DNA from: Candidatus Uhrbacteria bacterium | GTDB lineage: Bacteria; Patescibacteriota; Patescibacteriia; UBA9934; GWF2-40-263 | Assembly: GCA_037131775.1 (NCBI GenBank) | Contig: JBAXQK010000003.1 | Coordinates: forward strand, 12,439-76,438 | DNA: 64,000 nucleotides | Reading direction: 5' to 3' | Part shown: positions 3,081 through 59,044 of the stretch, piece after piece | How the letters are laid out: the number at the start of each line of letters is the position of its first letter | How positions within the stretch are numbered: the first letter of the stretch is position 1 | Notes under the pieces: model-generated | Database searches by the model: none | What the model saw: the letters and a program-made list of their open reading frames with translations, nothing else | What the model was told of the DNA's origin: nothing | Made by a program: the position numbers and the translations under genes

Positions 3081-4235
3081 TCATTGCGAGGTCATAGCCG
3101 AAGCAATCTTTTGGAGACGCTGGACGATCGTCGCGGCGACGTCCGTCCTCAGCAGCTTCTGAACATTGTCGCCAAGCGACCGTCGACGCTGTTCGTCGCG
3201 CAGCAACCCGCGAATCGCCTCGAGACACTCCTGCGGACTCGTGGCATCCTCGCAAAGGACGACTGCCGCCTCGCCCGCCTCGAGAACCCGCGCATTGTCC
3301 TCCTGCGGCGAATTCGGCAGCGGAACGACGATCGCCGCCTTCCCTCTCGCGGAAAGGTCCGAGATCGTTCCCATCCCGGCGCGACACACGACCAGGTCCG
3401 CGGCGGTCAGCGCGTCGGACATCGCCTCGGTAAGCAGCTCGACCGCGACGTAGTTGTCGCCCATGGATTCAAGCGTCGGCGTCATCTTGCCCGTCCCGAC
3501 GATGTGGATCACGTTCGCGGTCTCCGCGATCTCGCGCCCGATCGTTTCCATGAGGCGGTTCAGGAACAGCGCACCTCCGCCTCCGCCGAAGACAAGGACT
3601 GTTGGGCGCGAGGGGTCAAGACCGAAGCGACGAACGTAGGACTCGTGAAAACCCGACGGGACTAGAGTCCCTGGGAATTCCGTCGAGACGGGACTAAAGT
3701 CCCTGGGAAACGAGTTCACAGGGACTTTAGTCCCGTTCGCTCGCACAGGATTCCCCACCCACGCCGACTTCCCCTTCGGAAACGCCGCGAGCGACGATTC
3801 CCAGGCCGTCGAGATCCACGTCGCGAACGGGACGACGAGACGGCTCGACAGGATCGGACGAACGTCCTGCTGGTGGAGCCACGACGGGATCCCGAGCAGG
3901 CGCGCGGCGACGATGAGCGGAACGCCAGTAAATCCTCCCGCGGACGCGACAAGGTTCGGCTGTTCGTCCTTCAGAATCCCCCACGACTGCCGCGCCGCCC
4001 GAAACAGGTTCACCGGCAGCGTCAGCCACTCGACCGACGGATATCGCGTCAGACGCGCGACGGGAATCGAAACGAACCGCAGCCCCGCCGCCTCCACGAC
4101 CTTCCGGTCCGGCCCGCCCGGCGTCCCGACCCAAACGAACTCAACCGCAGGATCGACGACGCGCCAAGCCTCCGCGACGGCCAGAAGCGGCGTCACGGGC
4201 CCGAGCGTTCCTCCGCCGGCGAATAATATCTTCAT
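3081..4235 (-). CDS. murG: UDP-GlcNAc:lipid I N-acetylglucosaminyltransferase MurG
   Basis: MKILFAGGGTLGPVTP..., GNPVR, VLVFGGGGGA, VVCRAGMGTISD motifs; start taken at the internal Met (ORF-track N-extension unlikely); carries an extra ~25-aa loop encoded by a nucleotide repeat. Confidence 0.88.
   Translation of the reverse strand: MKILFAGGGTLGPVTPLLAVAEAWRVVDPAVEFVWVGTPGGPDRKVVEAAGLRFVSIPVARLTRYPSVEWLTLPVNLFRAARQSWGILKDEQPNLVASAGGFTGVPLIVAARLLGIPSWLHQQDVRPILSSRLVVPFATWISTAWESSLAAFPKGKSAWVGNPVRANGTKVPVNSFPRDFSPVSTEFPGTLVPSGFHESYVRRFGLDPSRPTVLVFGGGGGALFLNRLMETIGREIAETANVIHIVGTGKMTPTLESMGDNYVAVELLTEAMSDALTAADLVVCRAGMGTISDLSARGKAAIVVPLPNSPQEDNARVLEAGEAAVVLCEDATSPQECLEAIRGLLRDEQRRRSLGDNVQKLLRTDVAATIVQRLQKIASAMTSQ
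3654..3740. repeat. Three copies (two direct, one inverted) of palindromic motif ACGGGACTARAGTCCCTG inside the murG coding sequence
   Basis: Copies at ~3656-3677, 3688-3709 and inverted at 3719-3736; motif core GGGAC-N4-GTCCC is self-complementary. Confidence 0.75.
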
Positions 4236-14300: not shown

Positions 14301-14930
14301 CTACGGTACGAGCTTACCTTTTTCCCACTGAACGATCAATCCCGCCTTTACTTCGACCGCGTCCGCCGGTCGGAGCGTCGCGATCTGGCCTCGCGACAGG
14401 ATCGGCGTGTGTACCACGTCGCAAAGGTACTCTGGGACGAACCAGACAGGATCCTCGCTGGTCATCCAGCCGCGCGCGTCAAATCGGGACAGATCGACGG
14501 GTCGCGAGAACGATCTCAGCGTCTTCTTGCCGTTTGACTGCAGAAAATACTCATGGAAGTACGACATCGCCAGCTCGCGGATCGTGCGATAGACCGGCTC
14601 GCGGTAGCGGAGGACGGCGTGATTGGTCTTCGATATCGCACCCCAGTGGCCATGGCGACGAAAGAGGGCGACGACGTGGTCCTGGTCGTCGTCGGTCGAA
14701 GTAAGGTCGAGAATCAGCGGCCTTTCGCCGGCGAGGCGCAATGCGACGGCGGCGAGCATCGCGCCCTCGATGCAGTGCGCGCGCCCTTGGCGAAGGACGA
14801 GGCGCGGCGAGAAGCACGAGTCTCCGTCGGGCTCGTGGTTCTGCGGAAGCGCGTCAAGAAAGTCCTGGATTTTTGCCGGAGCGTTGAGTCGTTTGAGAAC
14901 GCGGAGTTCCGTTGGGTCGAGCCCGTACAT
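14301..14930 (-). CDS. Hypothetical protein, tentatively transglutaminase-like/cysteine-peptidase fold
   Basis: 209 aa; conserved-looking Cys/His context (GRAHCIEGAMLAAV..., HGHWGAI); no secure family call. Confidence 0.5.
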   Translation of the reverse strand: MYGLDPTELRVLKRLNAPAKIQDFLDALPQNHEPDGDSCFSPRLVLRQGRAHCIEGAMLAAVALRLAGERPLILDLTSTDDDQDHVVALFRRHGHWGAISKTNHAVLRYREPVYRTIRELAMSYFHEYFLQSNGKKTLRSFSRPVDLSRFDARGWMTSEDPVWFVPEYLCDVVHTPILSRGQIATLRPADAVEVKAGLIVQWEKGKLVP

Positions 14931-33978: not shown

Positions 33979-34061
33979 TGGGCAGAGAAGGATTCGAACC
34001 TTCGAAGCCGTGAAGCAAGAGATTTACAGTCTCTCCCCGTTGACCGCTTGGGTATCTGCCC
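33976..34061 (-). tRNA. tRNA-Tyr (anticodon GUA), long variable arm, CCA encoded
   Basis: Anticodon loop CUGUAAA, type II variable arm UUGCUUCACGGCUUC, T-arm GAAGG-UUCGAAU-CCUUC. Confidence 0.85.
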
Positions 34062-54441: not shown

Positions 54442-55014
54442 CTATTTGAATTCCCCTTCCAGCACATGCCCGGACGGATCCGGGTTCCCGTCCTTCGGCT
54501 CCCTGGTCACGACGACCCGAACGTACCCGTCATACTTCCCCGCCGCGCTGGCCCATTCGAGCCCCCAGGTTCCGTCCTCGTTTCCGACGAATGACCCGAC
54601 GGAGACAAAATCGTACGGAACCTGACGAACGAGCCATCCCTCGTAGGATTCCTTTTCCGGGTCGATCGGCGGGAAGGACGACGCCTTGATCTTCAAAAGC
54701 ATCTGCCCGTCGACGGTCTCGCGGATCGTCGTCCCCGTCGCGGATCCGCCCGACACGTCGCGCAGCGTCGCCTCGCGGACCGTCCCGGACATGGATACGG
54801 CCAGGTCGGCGGCAGAGACAGCCGTCGGCGACATCACGTTTGCGATCGTGTTCGTGGCGACGACATCCGTCGACGGTTTCGGCCGGAACCGGAACCACCA
54901 GATTCCGCACGCGAACAGCCCCGCGATCGCGACAATGATCAGCGCGATGACGACAACCGTCCCGGTGACGCGCGGGGAACGGCGGCGGGCGTGGAATTGG
55001 GAACGGTATTGCAT
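54442..55014 (-). CDS. Hypothetical membrane-anchored protein
   Basis: Start at MQYRSQFHARRR...; one TM then ~150-aa soluble domain. Confidence 0.5.
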   Translation of the reverse strand: MQYRSQFHARRRSPRVTGTVVVIALIIVAIAGLFACGIWWFRFRPKPSTDVVATNTIANVMSPTAVSAADLAVSMSGTVREATLRDVSGGSATGTTIRETVDGQMLLKIKASSFPPIDPEKESYEGWLVRQVPYDFVSVGSFVGNEDGTWGLEWASAAGKYDGYVRVVVTREPKDGNPDPSGHVLEGEFK

Positions 55015-55022
55015 AGAAGATG

Positions 55023-55105
55023 GGGATATGAACCTGCGAACTGGCTGCGAACCTACTAAGTCTGAACTGACAACGAAACGTTCGTGGGTTCGCAGGTTCG
55101 TATCC
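55023..55105. mobile_element. Degenerate copy of an ~82-bp MITE-like palindromic element (TIR GGATAYGAACCTGCGAAC)
   Basis: Termini match the 58896-58977 element; 9 nt upstream of the ATG at 55014. Confidence 0.55.
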
Positions 55106-55109
55106 AATT

Positions 55110-56246
55110 TCAACCCTTCACAGCCTCCGCCACGATCCGCGCGGAATCGACGTCGAACAGCGACGGGAGTATTCGCTCCGCGGTCGGGGTCTCGACGGTC
55201 GCGGCGAGGGCGCGGGCGGCGGCGAGGAACATGGCCGTCGTGAACGCTGGAATCTTGCCCTCGAGGACGCCGAGGAACAGGCCGGGGTACGCGAGCACGT
55301 TGTTCACCTGGTTCGGATAGTCGCTGCGCCCCGTCGCGATCACGGCCGCGCCGCCGGCCTTCGCGACCTCGGGCGTCACCTCGGGGACGGGATTCGCCAT
55401 GGCGAACACGATCGCGCCCGGCGCCATCGAGCGGACCATCTCCTCGGAAACGATTCCCGGCGCGCTGACGCCAAGGAACACGTCCGAGCCAGCCAGCGCA
55501 TCACCGAGCGACCCGAGGCGGCCGTCCGGGTTGATCCGCGCCGCGAGTTCGTCCTTCTGCGCGTTCATCCCCTCGCGTCCGACGGCGATCATCCCCTTCG
55601 AGTCGCACATCGCGACGTTCTTCGCGCCCGCCTCAAGCAGCAGACGAGCCGATGCGACGCCAGCCGCGCCGACGCCCGAGATGACGATTTTCGCCGTCTC
55701 GATCGACTTATCCACAACCCTCAGCGCGTTCAAAACTCCGGCAAGGACGACAACCGCCGTCCCGTGCTGGTCGTCGTGCATCACCGGAATGTCCAGCTCC
55801 GCGGCAAGCCTCTTCTCAATCTCAAAGCATTTCGGCGCCGCGATGTCCTCGAGGTGGATCGCCCCGAATCCCGGCGCGATGTTCTTGATCGTCGCGATAA
55901 TCTCCTCCGTATCCTGCGTCGCGAGACAGATCGGAAACGCGTCCAGCCCGGCGAACCGCTTGAACAGAATCGCCTTCCCTTCCATCACCGGCATCCCGGC
56001 TTCCGGTCCGATGTTGCCAAGGCCGAGGACGGCGGACCCGTCCGTCACGACTGCGACGAAGCGACCCTTGATCGTCAGTTCCCGCGCCAGCGACTTGTCC
56101 GCCGCGATCGCGAGACAAACGGCCGCGACGCCCGGCGTGTACGCCGTCGCAAGGTCGTCGCTCGTTTGCAACGGCACGGTCGAGGCGATCTCAAGCTTGC
56201 CGCGCTTTTCGCGGTGGAGTTTCAGGGAGAGTTCGGAGTAGTTCAT
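55110..56246 (-). CDS. maeA: NAD(P)-dependent malic enzyme (short form)
   Basis: Malic enzyme N- and NAD-binding domains (GVGAAGVASARLL Rossmann motif, DDQHGTAVVVLAG). Confidence 0.88.
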   Translation of the reverse strand: MNYSELSLKLHREKRGKLEIASTVPLQTSDDLATAYTPGVAAVCLAIAADKSLARELTIKGRFVAVVTDGSAVLGLGNIGPEAGMPVMEGKAILFKRFAGLDAFPICLATQDTEEIIATIKNIAPGFGAIHLEDIAAPKCFEIEKRLAAELDIPVMHDDQHGTAVVVLAGVLNALRVVDKSIETAKIVISGVGAAGVASARLLLEAGAKNVAMCDSKGMIAVGREGMNAQKDELAARINPDGRLGSLGDALAGSDVFLGVSAPGIVSEEMVRSMAPGAIVFAMANPVPEVTPEVAKAGGAAVIATGRSDYPNQVNNVLAYPGLFLGVLEGKIPAFTTAMFLAAARALAATVETPTAERILPSLFDVDSARIVAEAVKG

Positions 56247-56799: not shown

Positions 56800-58887
56800 C
56801 TAAAGATCCTCCACGTTCCGCAAAAAACTTCCTGTCATCGGCTTCGTCGGTTTCTTTTCTCCGAGACTGTCAAGCACGATCGTCGGGCCGTCGTCATCCG
56901 GGGCCGCGTAGTGGAACGGACGCTTAGGCGGGAAGCTCGACGATCCGAACGTCGACGGGCGCAGGCGGACTTCCTCGACGAGACCGTCCGGAAGTTCCTG
57001 GATGAACTGGCTTGGCTGTCCGAACATAAGAGTATCATCGCCGGAGGAGATCGGATAGGTCAGGAAGAGATGTTTCCGTGCTCTCGTCGCCGCGACGTAG
57101 AACAGGCGGCGTTCCTCTTCAATCCCGCCTTCCTCGCCGAGAGAACGCTGATGCGGAAACTTGCCGTCGACCAGACCCATCACGAACACCGCTTCCCACT
57201 CGAGGCCCTTCGCCTGGTGAATGGTCGAGAGGACGAGCCGCTCGCGGTCGTCGGTTCCGGACGACGACTTCCCCGCCCCGTAATCCTCGGTCAGCGTCAC
57301 CTCCTCGAGAAACGTCGAGACAGCCTCGTACGGCTCGGCGAACAGCGCGAACTGCTCGAGGTCGTCGAGGCGATCCATGTAATCGGGATATTCCGCCTCG
57401 AGATAGTCGCGGTATCCGCTCGCGATGACCGCGCGAATCATGTGCGACGGCTTGGCGTGCTGGCTCATCGCGGCGACGGTCTCTTTGACGGCGGCGAGCG
57501 CGATCCCCGCCTTGCCCGCGACGACCGGATTCGGATCGACCTGGAGCTTCTCGACGATCTTTCGCGCCGTCACGTCGCCGATCCCCGGCTGCATGCCGAG
57601 CACTCGGGCCCAGGCAAGCTCGTCCTTCGGGTTCGCGACGATGCGGAGGTGGGAGACGACGTCCTTCACGTGGGCGCGTTGGAAGAACTTCATGCCGCCG
57701 CGGAAATCGTACGGGATGTCGCGCTTGGCCAGTTCGAACTCGAGCGCCTGGCTCTGGAACGATCCGCGAAACAGAACGGCCATGTCGCGCAGCGGCGTGC
57801 CGTCGGCGCGGAGGATGAGGATCTGCTCGGCGATGTACTGCGCCTCCTGGAACTGGTTCGCGGCCGGCACGAGGCTCGGCTTCTCGAACGGAGGGCGGAC
57901 GGCGCGAAGATCCTTCTTGAACTGGTCGCGATTCTGCGCGATCACCGCGTTCGCAAGCGACAAAATCTCCGGGCTCGACCGGTAGTTGGTAACAAGCCGG
58001 AACGTCTTGGCTCCGGGATACGTCTCCGGAAACTGGAGGATGTTGCGAATCTGCGCGGCGCGGAACGAGTAGATGCTCTGCGCGTCATCACCGACCACGA
58101 GGACATTGTTGTGGACGCTCGCGAGCTGGCGGACGATGCCGGCCTGGATCGTGTTCGTGTCCTGGAACTCGTCCACGAGGATGTACTGGAACTGCGTGGC
58201 GAGACGGTCGCGCACGACGGGATTGGTGTAGAGCAGCTTGCGGACCAGGAGGAGAAGATCGTCGAAGTCGACGATGTCGGACTGCGACTTGCGCGTCTCG
58301 TACAGCTCGGCGATGCGTTCGATGGTCGGGATGATGTCGCGGAAGTTCGGGTGCTTCTTGAGCGTCGACTCGCGGACGGAGATGCTCGCGTTCATCGCGT
58401 ACGAGATGACGTTGTGCAGGTTCGCCGGCGACGGGAACTTACGCGCCGTCGTGTCGACCGCGAGTTCCTTCACGCACGACTTGATGAGGTCTCGCGCGTC
58501 CTCCTCGTCCATGATCGTGAAGTTCGGCGTGTGACCGACGTAGGGCGCGTAGGTTCGCAAAAGTCGATTGGCGACGGAGTGAAACGTTCCGCCCCACATC
58601 CCGCGAGGGTTCGCGCAAAGCAAGCCCTCGACGCGGCCGAGCATTTCCTTGGCGGCCTTGTTCGTAAACGTCAGCAGCAAGATGTTCTCCGGCGAGACGC
58701 CGTTCTCGATGAGATACGCGACGCGGTACGTGATCGTCCGCGTCTTCCCCGACCCAGCGCCGGCGAGGACGAGGCACGGACCGTCTCCGTTCAACACGAC
58801 CTCGACCTGCTCCTCGTTGAGTTCCTTGCGATAGTCAATCTTGCAATTGGCAGGATCAAAGCGGTTTTGGAGGACGAATTCTTTCAT
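56800..58887 (-). CDS. uvrD: ATP-dependent DNA helicase UvrD/PcrA family
   Basis: Walker A LAGAGSGKTRTIT, motifs II (DEFQDTN), VGDDAQSIY, and C-terminal ...VAATRARK. Confidence 0.92.
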   Translation of the reverse strand: MKEFVLQNRFDPANCKIDYRKELNEEQVEVVLNGDGPCLVLAGAGSGKTRTITYRVAYLIENGVSPENILLLTFTNKAAKEMLGRVEGLLCANPRGMWGGTFHSVANRLLRTYAPYVGHTPNFTIMDEEDARDLIKSCVKELAVDTTARKFPSPANLHNVISYAMNASISVRESTLKKHPNFRDIIPTIERIAELYETRKSQSDIVDFDDLLLLVRKLLYTNPVVRDRLATQFQYILVDEFQDTNTIQAGIVRQLASVHNNVLVVGDDAQSIYSFRAAQIRNILQFPETYPGAKTFRLVTNYRSSPEILSLANAVIAQNRDQFKKDLRAVRPPFEKPSLVPAANQFQEAQYIAEQILILRADGTPLRDMAVLFRGSFQSQALEFELAKRDIPYDFRGGMKFFQRAHVKDVVSHLRIVANPKDELAWARVLGMQPGIGDVTARKIVEKLQVDPNPVVAGKAGIALAAVKETVAAMSQHAKPSHMIRAVIASGYRDYLEAEYPDYMDRLDDLEQFALFAEPYEAVSTFLEEVTLTEDYGAGKSSSGTDDRERLVLSTIHQAKGLEWEAVFVMGLVDGKFPHQRSLGEEGGIEEERRLFYVAATRARKHLFLTYPISSGDDTLMFGQPSQFIQELPDGLVEEVRLRPSTFGSSSFPPKRPFHYAAPDDDGPTIVLDSLGEKKPTKPMTGSFLRNVEDL

Positions 58888-58895
58888 AGGATGGA

Positions 58896-58977
58896 TGGAT
58901 ACGAACCTGCGAACTGGCTACGAACCTACGAAAATTTCCGTTTAGCAGGTTCGTAGCCAGTTCGCAGGTTCGTATCC
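58896..58977. mobile_element. MITE-like element: perfect 31-bp terminal inverted repeats (ggatacgaacctgcgaactggctacgaacct / aggttcgtagccagttcgcaggttcgtatcc) around a 20-nt core
   Basis: 8 nt upstream of the uvrD ATG; second degenerate copy at 55023-55105. Confidence 0.6.
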
Positions 58978-59044
58978 TCTCTCATTTCCCCGCAATGATA
59001 CCATATGCCCGGTATAAAAAAATCGGCCCGGAATGGGCCGAAGG

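Follow-up and report, generated by a model that had tools for sequence, protein, structure and literature searches.

The window analysed here, a stretch of 64,000 nucleotides of Candidatus Uhrbacteria DNA matching the ENA contig ERZ27300037 k141_1166528, carries two copies of a palindromic repeat that probably belongs to a small family of non-autonomous elements found in a narrow clade of Candidatus Uhrbacteria (Patescibacteria/CPR). In the best reading of the data, the element is a low-copy repeat of the same general type as MITEs and as Correia or ERIC elements. Its copies would have been gained, lost and duplicated in short intergenic spacers, with only the two 18-bp termini staying constant, and these termini, each of which is the outermost of the paired tandem 19-bp units at its end, may be the sites recognised by a mobilising enzyme. 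The first copy, designated W1, has the following parts:

58897–58977, strand not applicable: copy W1 of the palindromic element, 81 bp, covariance-model score 99.4 bits
58960–58977, strand not applicable: outer 18-bp terminus on the side away from the ATG, GGATACGAACCTGCGAAC on the minus strand, the same in W1, L031 and L012
58915–58959, strand not applicable: inner units and centre, variable among copies (32–64% identity)
58897–58914, strand not applicable: outer 18-bp terminus proximal to the uvrD ATG, from the 18-mer search and the terminus comparison

An inverted-repeat search placed the arms of W1 at 58897–58933 and 58941–58977, each 37 nt long and 95% complementary to the other, with perfect complementarity over the outer 31 nt. 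The unpaired centre is 7 nt with the 37-nt arms and 19 nt with the perfect 31-nt arms. An earlier note on this DNA had rightly reported perfect 31-bp inverted repeats, but its total length of 82 bp and its centre of 20 nt have to be corrected to 81 bp and 19 nt, and the arms extend to 37 nt. Each arm is composed of two tandem 19-bp units, TGGATACGAACCTGCGAAC and TGGCTACGAACCTACGAAA, which is more repetition than the direct repeat of CGAACCT previously described. The complete layout is one of four 18–19-bp units, two direct and then two inverted, around the 7-nt centre; the units of an arm can also be read as octamers, (A/C)T(A/G)CGAAC twice, TGG, and twice again, and the inner part gives the spacing GAAC-N7-GAAC / GTTC-N7-GTTC. 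Copies of the family range from 81 to 126 bp, have perfect inverted repeats of 18–31 bp as termini, with ends that can be written as GGATACGAA...TTCGTATCC, and contain no ORF of their own. W1 is the longest inverted repeat in the window, where most of the others are A/T-flanked hairpins at gene ends. The fold of the uvrD leader, which had been proposed as a check, gave a hairpin of -72.6 kcal/mol for the W1 region in the gene direction (z = -10.9 against shuffled sequences).

A search of the window with the 18-mer GGATACGAACCTGCGAAC, allowing up to three mismatches, returned seven matches against 0.04 expected. Six of them fall within W1 and W2, the second copy, and the remaining one, at 33990, is the T-arm of a tRNA-Tyr gene, a match explained by the resemblance of the termini to a tRNA T-arm (GGTTCGTATCC versus GGTTCGAATCC). 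Several termini also read 5'-TGG...CCA-3' when the flanking base is counted. A relation to tRNA was considered and discarded, as the element has no tRNA structure.

W1 lies in front of a helicase gene, in a leader that could be compared with those of relatives whose loci (designated by L numbers) were retrieved through UvrD homologues:

56800–58887, minus strand: uvrD/pcrA-type helicase gene, ATG at 58887 (Pfam UvrD-helicase 7e-79, UvrD_C 4e-60)
58890–58987, minus strand: full insertion relative to empty uvrD sites, 98 nt, from the alignment with L038, L039 and L040
58995–59003, minus strand: extended -10-like box TGGTATCAT, the presumed uvrD promoter, conserved in the uvrD-leader alignment
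59015–59041, minus strand: intrinsic terminator-like hairpin with its T-run, belonging to the 81-aa gene upstream; also conserved in L038 and L012

In the direction of the gene, the terminator-like hairpin (59041–59015) is followed by TGGTATCAT (59003–58995), TGCGGGG and the insert. Read on the minus strand, the 98-nt insertion consists of a purine-rich left tail, AAATGAGAGA (58978–58987), the palindrome, and a pyrimidine-rich right tail, ATCCATC (58890–58896). The right tail was at first suspected to be part of the element, but a pyrimidine-rich -8 to -1 region is also found at 19 of the 56 genes of the window, and this tail may be the usual start-codon context. The position before uvrD given in the earlier note holds, with a gap from the GGATAC terminus to the ATG of 9 nt instead of 8; the same 9 nt separate W2 from its downstream gene, and both genes are on the minus strand.

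The comparison with relatives, which had been suggested as a search for an empty site, found one in five of them: L038, L053 and L054, with UvrD proteins 96–98% identical to that of the window, and L039 and L040, with about 78% identity. L038 and L042 come from assembly ERZ27265269 and L053 from ERZ27280311. The leaders of the empty sites consist of the terminator, the box TGGTATCAT, TGGTATTCT or TGTTAATCT, G(G/T)CGGGG, (T/C)T and the ATG, and in the alignment of L038, L039 and L040 (C/T)TATG comes directly after CGGGG. Between CGGGG and CTATG there are clean insertions of 98 nt in the window and of 92 nt in L012, from the MAG nzgw368 with accession JAHFIS01. The tree of uvrD four-fold sites is (L012,(window,L038)), with identities of 0.72, 0.80 and 0.70. 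Together with the distribution of filled and empty sites, this tree implies one gain with a later exact loss, two separate gains at the same site, or recombination between alleles, and under each of the three scenarios the segment would be one that moves. The description of W1 as a repeated palindromic element is thus borne out: it is non-coding, occurs repeatedly, and appears to be gained or lost at specific sites such as uvrD.

The second copy had been reported as a degenerate one at 55023–55105, 9 nt before a start codon, and was confirmed with its boundary shifted by one base:

55024–55105, strand not applicable: copy W2, 82 bp, conserved termini and diverged interior, covariance-model score 62.2 bits
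54442–55014, minus strand: gene for an RskA_C-like membrane protein downstream of W2, ATG at 55014 (Pfam RskA_C 7.8e-09)

The 18-nt termini of W2 show a single mismatch, and the copy occupies the whole spacer between the malic-enzyme stop codon (55110–55112) and the RskA_C-like gene. This spacer is reduced to 1 nt in L039 and L040, and in L038 and L053 it holds unrelated hairpins.

Further copies were sought by exact-terminus scans with GGATAYGAACCTGCGAAC, one through 185,579 species genomes and one through the JGI metagenomes, which returned 16 and 20 loci, respectively, with about 35 chance matches estimated for the genome scan. Structured copies were found only at L012, L016 and L031, so that the species genomes contributed a single other genome with two loci and the metagenomes one further source; all other scan loci were rejected as chance matches, being lone 18-mers with no second arm. 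The L012 and L016 copies both belong to the MAG nzgw368, the former at the orthologous uvrD site and the latter in front of an amidohydrolase gene, 3 nt past a TAGAAT box. The L031 copy, from a JGI metagenome, matches W1 at 80 of 81 positions, loop included, and is located between a trmB-family gene and a DUF218 gene. The L031 TrmB is identical to P0370 (MEI6511305.1; 252/252) and the UvrD of the window to P0361 (MEI6510826.1; 695/695), both of which NCBI lists, under accession numbers close to each other, for a Candidatus Uhrbacteria MAG. These exact identities and the closeness of the accession numbers make it very probable that L031 is a third copy within the same MAG or species as the window, and it and W1 are very probably recent duplicates, in either direction. 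At the trmB/DUF218 spacer the element is missing from L049 (TrmB 98% identical) and L050 (75%), which have unrelated palindromes instead.

An additional family member of 126 nt was detected just downstream of lexA in L042, L044, L045 and L046, and the contig of L043 breaks off within it. Neither L040 nor L048 has the element at this place, and a 20-nt remnant, GGATACGTTGATTCGTATCC, precedes the next gene at the lexA locus. A covariance model, R1, built from six copies and run with filters off, recovered the two copies of the 64-kb window and no diverged ones, and none in about 110 kb from relatives; its matches at about 20 bits were generic terminator hairpins and not copies. Scans of viral sequences with exact and degenerate patterns gave nothing real, and blastn against plasmids and phages returned no matches. 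Copies attributable to one MAG or species are W1, W2 and L031, and two are attributable to nzgw368, in counts from exact-18-mer scans that miss diverged copies. The search for further copies called for earlier brought up L012, L016 and L031, and the copy number is low, with two in 64 kb. Two independent assemblies, L056 (964–999) and L043 (5639–5685), terminate inside the element, which fits a repeat or palindrome that tangles the assembly graph.

The earlier statement that the termini are conserved and the interiors divergent was supported by the comparison of W1, W2, L012 and L016, the copies of about 81–87 nt, in which both 18-bp termini are identical at 34–36 of 36 positions against 32–64% identity for the interiors. 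In the orthologous pair W1/L012 the termini match at 36 of 36 positions and the interior at 28 of 45, while uvrD four-fold sites are 72% identical. At a uniform identity of 72%, a 36/36 match would be expected about 7 times per million, a figure to be read with the fact that any copy discovered by the exact 18-mer search necessarily had one terminus intact, so that the set of copies is biased in this direction. The conservation of the termini between W1 and L012 would equally be expected of a site selected by the host. The 126-nt variant has four terminal differences from the consensus, all mirrored in the opposite arm, a pattern compatible with the need to keep a hairpin as well as with recognition of both ends by a single protein. 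On the gene-sense strand, G.U pairs outnumber A.C mismatches by 9 to 2 (binomial p ~0.03), W2 having been left out of the count owing to its poorly aligning interior; this is a weak hint that the sense RNA or a single strand matters.

With regard to mobility, the element is short, below the limit of about 500 bp for a MITE, and non-coding, has terminal inverted repeats and shows the insertion polymorphism of a MITE, with the uvrD site filled in the window and L012 and empty in five relatives, and with a second polymorphic site downstream of lexA. Target-site duplications, which had been proposed for examination, could be demonstrated at none of the copies: in W1, W2, L012, L016, L031 and L042 alike, the two flanks carry no matching direct repeat. 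An 8-bp duplication at W1, ATGAGAGA / ATGAAAGA, was rejected as it is unsupported by L012 and conflicts with the CTATG common to filled and empty sites, and other registers (5-bp, TA, and the left-flank GAAAT as an IS200/IS605-type target) were not consistent across copies. Transposase, integrase and HUH domains were absent from the 64-kb window, and with them the HUH feature of REP/REPIN systems, at a density of two copies per 64 kb. The scans of genomes, metagenomes and viruses gave no longer element with matching termini, which is a weak negative as exact matches were required. The genes near W1 encode UvrD, an 81-aa ORF, a NUDIX protein and malic enzyme, and the other genes of the window are chromosomal housekeeping genes (murG, ftsW, mraY, CTP synthase, type IV pilus genes and a two-component system).

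Because the test for target duplication failed and a known transposase partner is absent, we file the element in the broad class of small mobile palindromic repeats and outside any named family. The earlier alternative of a non-autonomous mobile element or REP-like palindrome is upheld as to gain and loss at specific sites; a target duplication and a transposase partner lend it no support, and the copy number is low. The same note had proposed that a lack of further copies, with both loci conserved in relatives and showing covariation, would favour a gene-specific hairpin; the copy number is indeed low, but the sites are not conserved.

Several known systems resemble the element in part. Correia elements of Neisseria (CREE/NEMIS) are non-coding palindromes of about 100 bp with long terminal inverted repeats, are polymorphic among strains, and insert near gene starts or between co-transcribed genes, where their hairpin transcripts alter mRNA processing and stability. 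The Uhrbacteria element is likewise a non-coding, strain-polymorphic palindrome near gene starts. Correia elements, however, duplicate a TA target, number in the hundreds per genome and carry an IHF site and outward promoters, whereas our element shows no duplication, a handful of copies and no convincing internal promoter, and we know of no sequence similarity between the two. ERIC/IRU and REP/BIME/REPIN sequences of Proteobacteria are also imperfect intergenic palindromes gained and lost at orthologous spacers; ERIC and REP act as RNA stem-loops in transcribed intergenic regions, and REPINs are inverted doublets that form one hairpin. REPs differ in their tens to hundreds of copies and in their ties to RAYT (HUH) transposases, neither of which was seen here, and the tandem 19-mers of the element, unlike ERIC and REP units, are individually non-palindromic. 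The arrangement of two tandem 19-bp units per end, inverted and with the outermost most conserved, and the 5'-TGG...CCA-3' reading of several termini recall the ends of Tn402/Tn5053 (19-bp repeats), Tn7, Mu and IS21 and the MITEs derived from such ends, and arrayed transposase-binding sites are carried by the ends of Tn402, Tn7 and Mu. Those transposons make target duplications of 4–8 bp, in contrast to the element, for which neither these nor a cognate transposase or full-length relative were found.

The insertion at uvrD has to be considered in relation to the gene starts of this genome, in which extended -10 promoters are in use. An SD-like motif was found in only 7 of the 56 genes of the window, while TGNTANNNT is about seven-fold enriched upstream of genes and 7 of 56 have this box at most 10 nt from the ATG. 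Examination of the 45 nt upstream of the 56 gene starts also showed in many genes a pyrimidine-rich tract, for example (TAA)TCCCT, just before the ATG. In seven genes extended -10 boxes (TGCTATAAT and similar) finish 2–10 nt before the ATG, which points to frequent leaderless or near-leaderless mRNAs. The proposal that the element replaces the usual SD region is wrong in view of the scarcity of SD-like motifs and of the uvrD genes of relatives, whose -10 box lies 9 nt before the ATG. This spacing fits a leaderless-type layout of the empty-site uvrD genes. In the window the distance from TGGTATCAT to the uvrD ATG is 107 nt, the longest such distance observed, and the insertion between an extended -10 promoter and the ATG would thereby give a leaderless-type uvrD a leader of about 100 nt. 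If transcription starts a few nucleotides after TATCAT, this leader would be essentially one closed hairpin, and folding predicts that its 5' GGGGAA and the pyrimidine tail before the AUG form 8 bp in W1 and 6 perfect bp in L012. In the malic-enzyme/rskA and trmB/DUF218 spacers the hairpin stands between genes arranged head-to-tail, a separate promoter would not fit, and no U-tract comes after the hairpin.

By analogy with Correia, ERIC and REP elements, the effect is likely to be exerted at the RNA level, by a 5'-terminal or intercistronic stem-loop that alters mRNA stability, processing (for instance by RNase III) or translation and start-codon access. W1 was not called by the terminator scan, and the sequence downstream of it, AUCCAUCCUAUG, has no U-tract of an intrinsic terminator. 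An internal outward promoter was also looked for; the best candidate, TTCGTA-N17-TATCCA, matches at 3/6 plus 3/6 positions and is unconvincing.

The malic-enzyme/rskA and trmB/DUF218 spacers appear, from these comparisons, to be hot spots of hairpin turnover, as the same spacers carry unrelated palindromes in other strains. The long palindromes concerned are different and mutually unrelated (L038 10085–10195; L050 6770–6824; L049 2586–2630; L053 13795–13830), and in some strains the spacer is wholly absent at one or the other of these places. L053 also has, at 14420–14642, an AT-rich spacer of 223 nt that is missing at this position in the window and L038 and that repeats the terminal motif in other arrangements (TATTCGTATCA-AATA-TGATACGAATA, TGATACGAAAC and TGATACGATAA); this spacer may derive from a degraded family member, or the motif may be bound by a protein independently of the family.

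This turnover of unrelated long palindromes is also what would be seen if the copies were non-mobile host RNA elements, such as intercistronic stabilisers or terminator-like and processing hairpins, exchanged between strains by ordinary recombination. Such an origin would account for the failure to find either a target-site duplication or a transposase, for the slight G.U excess on the sense strand, and for the two loci at which the entire spacer differs among strains instead of showing a clean insertion. We nevertheless regard it as unlikely, since copies identical at 80 of 81 positions occur at unlinked loci, the uvrD site is a clean 98-nt indel between conserved flanks, and no U-tract follows the hairpin. 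Moreover, the 18-bp termini are identical despite divergence of the interior, and RNA structure alone tolerates compensatory change. A vertically inherited cis-regulatory RNA specific to the uvrD leader, of riboswitch or attenuator type, would agree with the very stable structure within the predicted 5' UTR and its presence at the same site in two genomes. This reading is very improbable and is contradicted by the distribution of the element as inferred from the alignments: it is missing in five relatives, three of them with UvrD 96–98% identical, the same sequence stands before unrelated genes, and the interior is unconserved. Rfam 15 contained no family at the gathering threshold, and its only matches, to plant and animal miRNA-precursor hairpins (35 bits against 200, and 24 against 90), are noise. 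Short tandem repeats in a CPR genome could also suggest a guide-RNA array of the TIGR or CRISPR kind, as TIGR arrays occur in CPR bacteria (PMC12045711). A TIGR array, however, has alternating edge and loop repeats with 9-nt variable spacers, in 5–15 units, and an adjacent Nop-domain Tas gene (PMC12045711), whereas the element has two units per arm only, inverted and not all tandem, no variable 9-nt spacers, no Nop-domain (Tas) or cas gene nearby, and near-identical copies at several loci, so that this possibility is scarcely credible.

Another explanation on which we place little weight is that the units are sites of a host transcription factor, with LexA as the most specific candidate, and that the element is an operator cassette placing uvrD and other genes under this regulator; such a cassette could still be spread by mobile DNA. 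The lexA promoters of four Uhrbacteria have TTGCGTTCGGnTTTTGTTCGGTnTAnAATACGAACAnAnnCCGAACAG in common, in which the -10 box is preceded by GTTCG-N6-GTTCG and followed by CGAAC-N6-CGAAC, so that oppositely oriented GTTC-N7-GTTC direct repeats stand on its two sides. W1 has one correctly spaced GTTCG-N6-GTTCG box per arm, likewise in opposite orientations, as in direct-repeat LexA operators, and in W1 and L031 one arm contains GAAC-N7-GAAC and the other GTTC-N7-GTTC, with three of the five such spacings of the window located within elements. The uvrD gene is a classic SOS gene in E. coli, the 126-nt family member lies inside the lexA-IMS (Y-family polymerase) operon, the W1 and L016 elements are immediately downstream of -10-like boxes, and the termini are conserved in the orthologous pair W1/L012. 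GTTC-N7-GTTC is the alphaproteobacterial LexA motif (PMC8565304), and the direct repeats of the lexA promoters agree with a passage of PMC7739468 in which a study of Patescibacteria LexA is named among cases of LexA evolved to direct-repeat recognition.

Against the operator reading, the boxes are poorly conserved within the family: W1 and L031 have them in both arms and W2 in one, those of L016 are degenerate, those of the orthologous L012 are disrupted (GAAC-N7-GTAA; GTCG-N7-GTTC), and the 126-nt variant has none. The conserved outer unit has instead a GAAC-N4-GAAC spacing unlike that of the lexA-promoter boxes, the order of the boxes differs from that in the lexA promoters of the clade, and the spacer is GC-rich in the element and T-rich in those promoters. 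No regulon is apparent among the flanking genes (RskA_C-like, DUF218, amidohydrolase), the head-to-tail genes around W2 and L031 leave no space for a promoter, and close relatives are entirely without the site at uvrD. A bolder version, in which LexA binds the GTTCG-N6-GTTCG repeats of a mobile cassette and its insertion recruited uvrD into the SOS regulon of this strain, is quite improbable. If true, the sister strains with empty sites would express uvrD constitutively, and a transposable palindrome would have rewired a regulon in a reduced CPR genome.

The lexA loci presented other features. Promoters with two such boxes are located at L040 16081–16203, L042 3579–3756, L043 4803–5000 and L047 4892–5000, and a perfect DnaA-box-like TTATCCACA occurs farther upstream in the lexA promoters. 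A conserved hairpin, GACGAGG(C/T)GCGAAGGGATCACG...CGTCGTCG, stands between lexA and an ORF of about 49 aa, ahead of an 82-aa gene and the IMS gene (L040 15395–15453, minus strand; L042 4531–4591; L048 2677–2772), and may serve the SOS operon as a leader or as a regulatory RNA. A further conserved structured segment, CTTATGGGGGCGGAAGAACAGGACTCCTGTCGCC...GGGGCCCCATAAG, immediately precedes the IMS gene, at L052 15030–15110 (minus strand; on the contig of the window, just outside it) and L042 5096–5221; the contig of the window terminates 146 nt upstream of the IMS gene.

We also detected a second, unrelated family of palindromic repeats, ACGGGACTAAAGTCCCTGGGAA with the core GGGACTAAAGTCCC, at 3657–3736 of the window, within the murG ORF (3081–4235, minus strand). 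Three units lie in the murG frame, between the Glyco_transf_28 N and C domains, and the 16-mer GGGACTAAAGTCCC is also present in other ORFs of related genomes (L049 214–268; L043 426–441). In this respect the units resemble the palindromic elements of Rickettsia, which insert into genes in frame.

Proteobacteria, Neisseria, Rickettsia and cyanobacteria are well known to carry small palindromic repeats, and a full-text search of a collection of papers found no description of such repeats in CPR/Patescibacteria. For a small element of mobile type, the short spacers of a reduced genome would offer no harmless landing place, and W1 stands between a leaderless-type promoter and the ATG of a core repair helicase gene, with the empty-site relatives as a natural control. 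In practice, the element breaks assemblies, with consequences for the contiguity of MAGs, and can mislead the annotation of starts and promoters. The uvrD locus would thus be a usable case for the effects of insertions on expression in an uncultured lineage that is largely without Shine-Dalgarno sequences.
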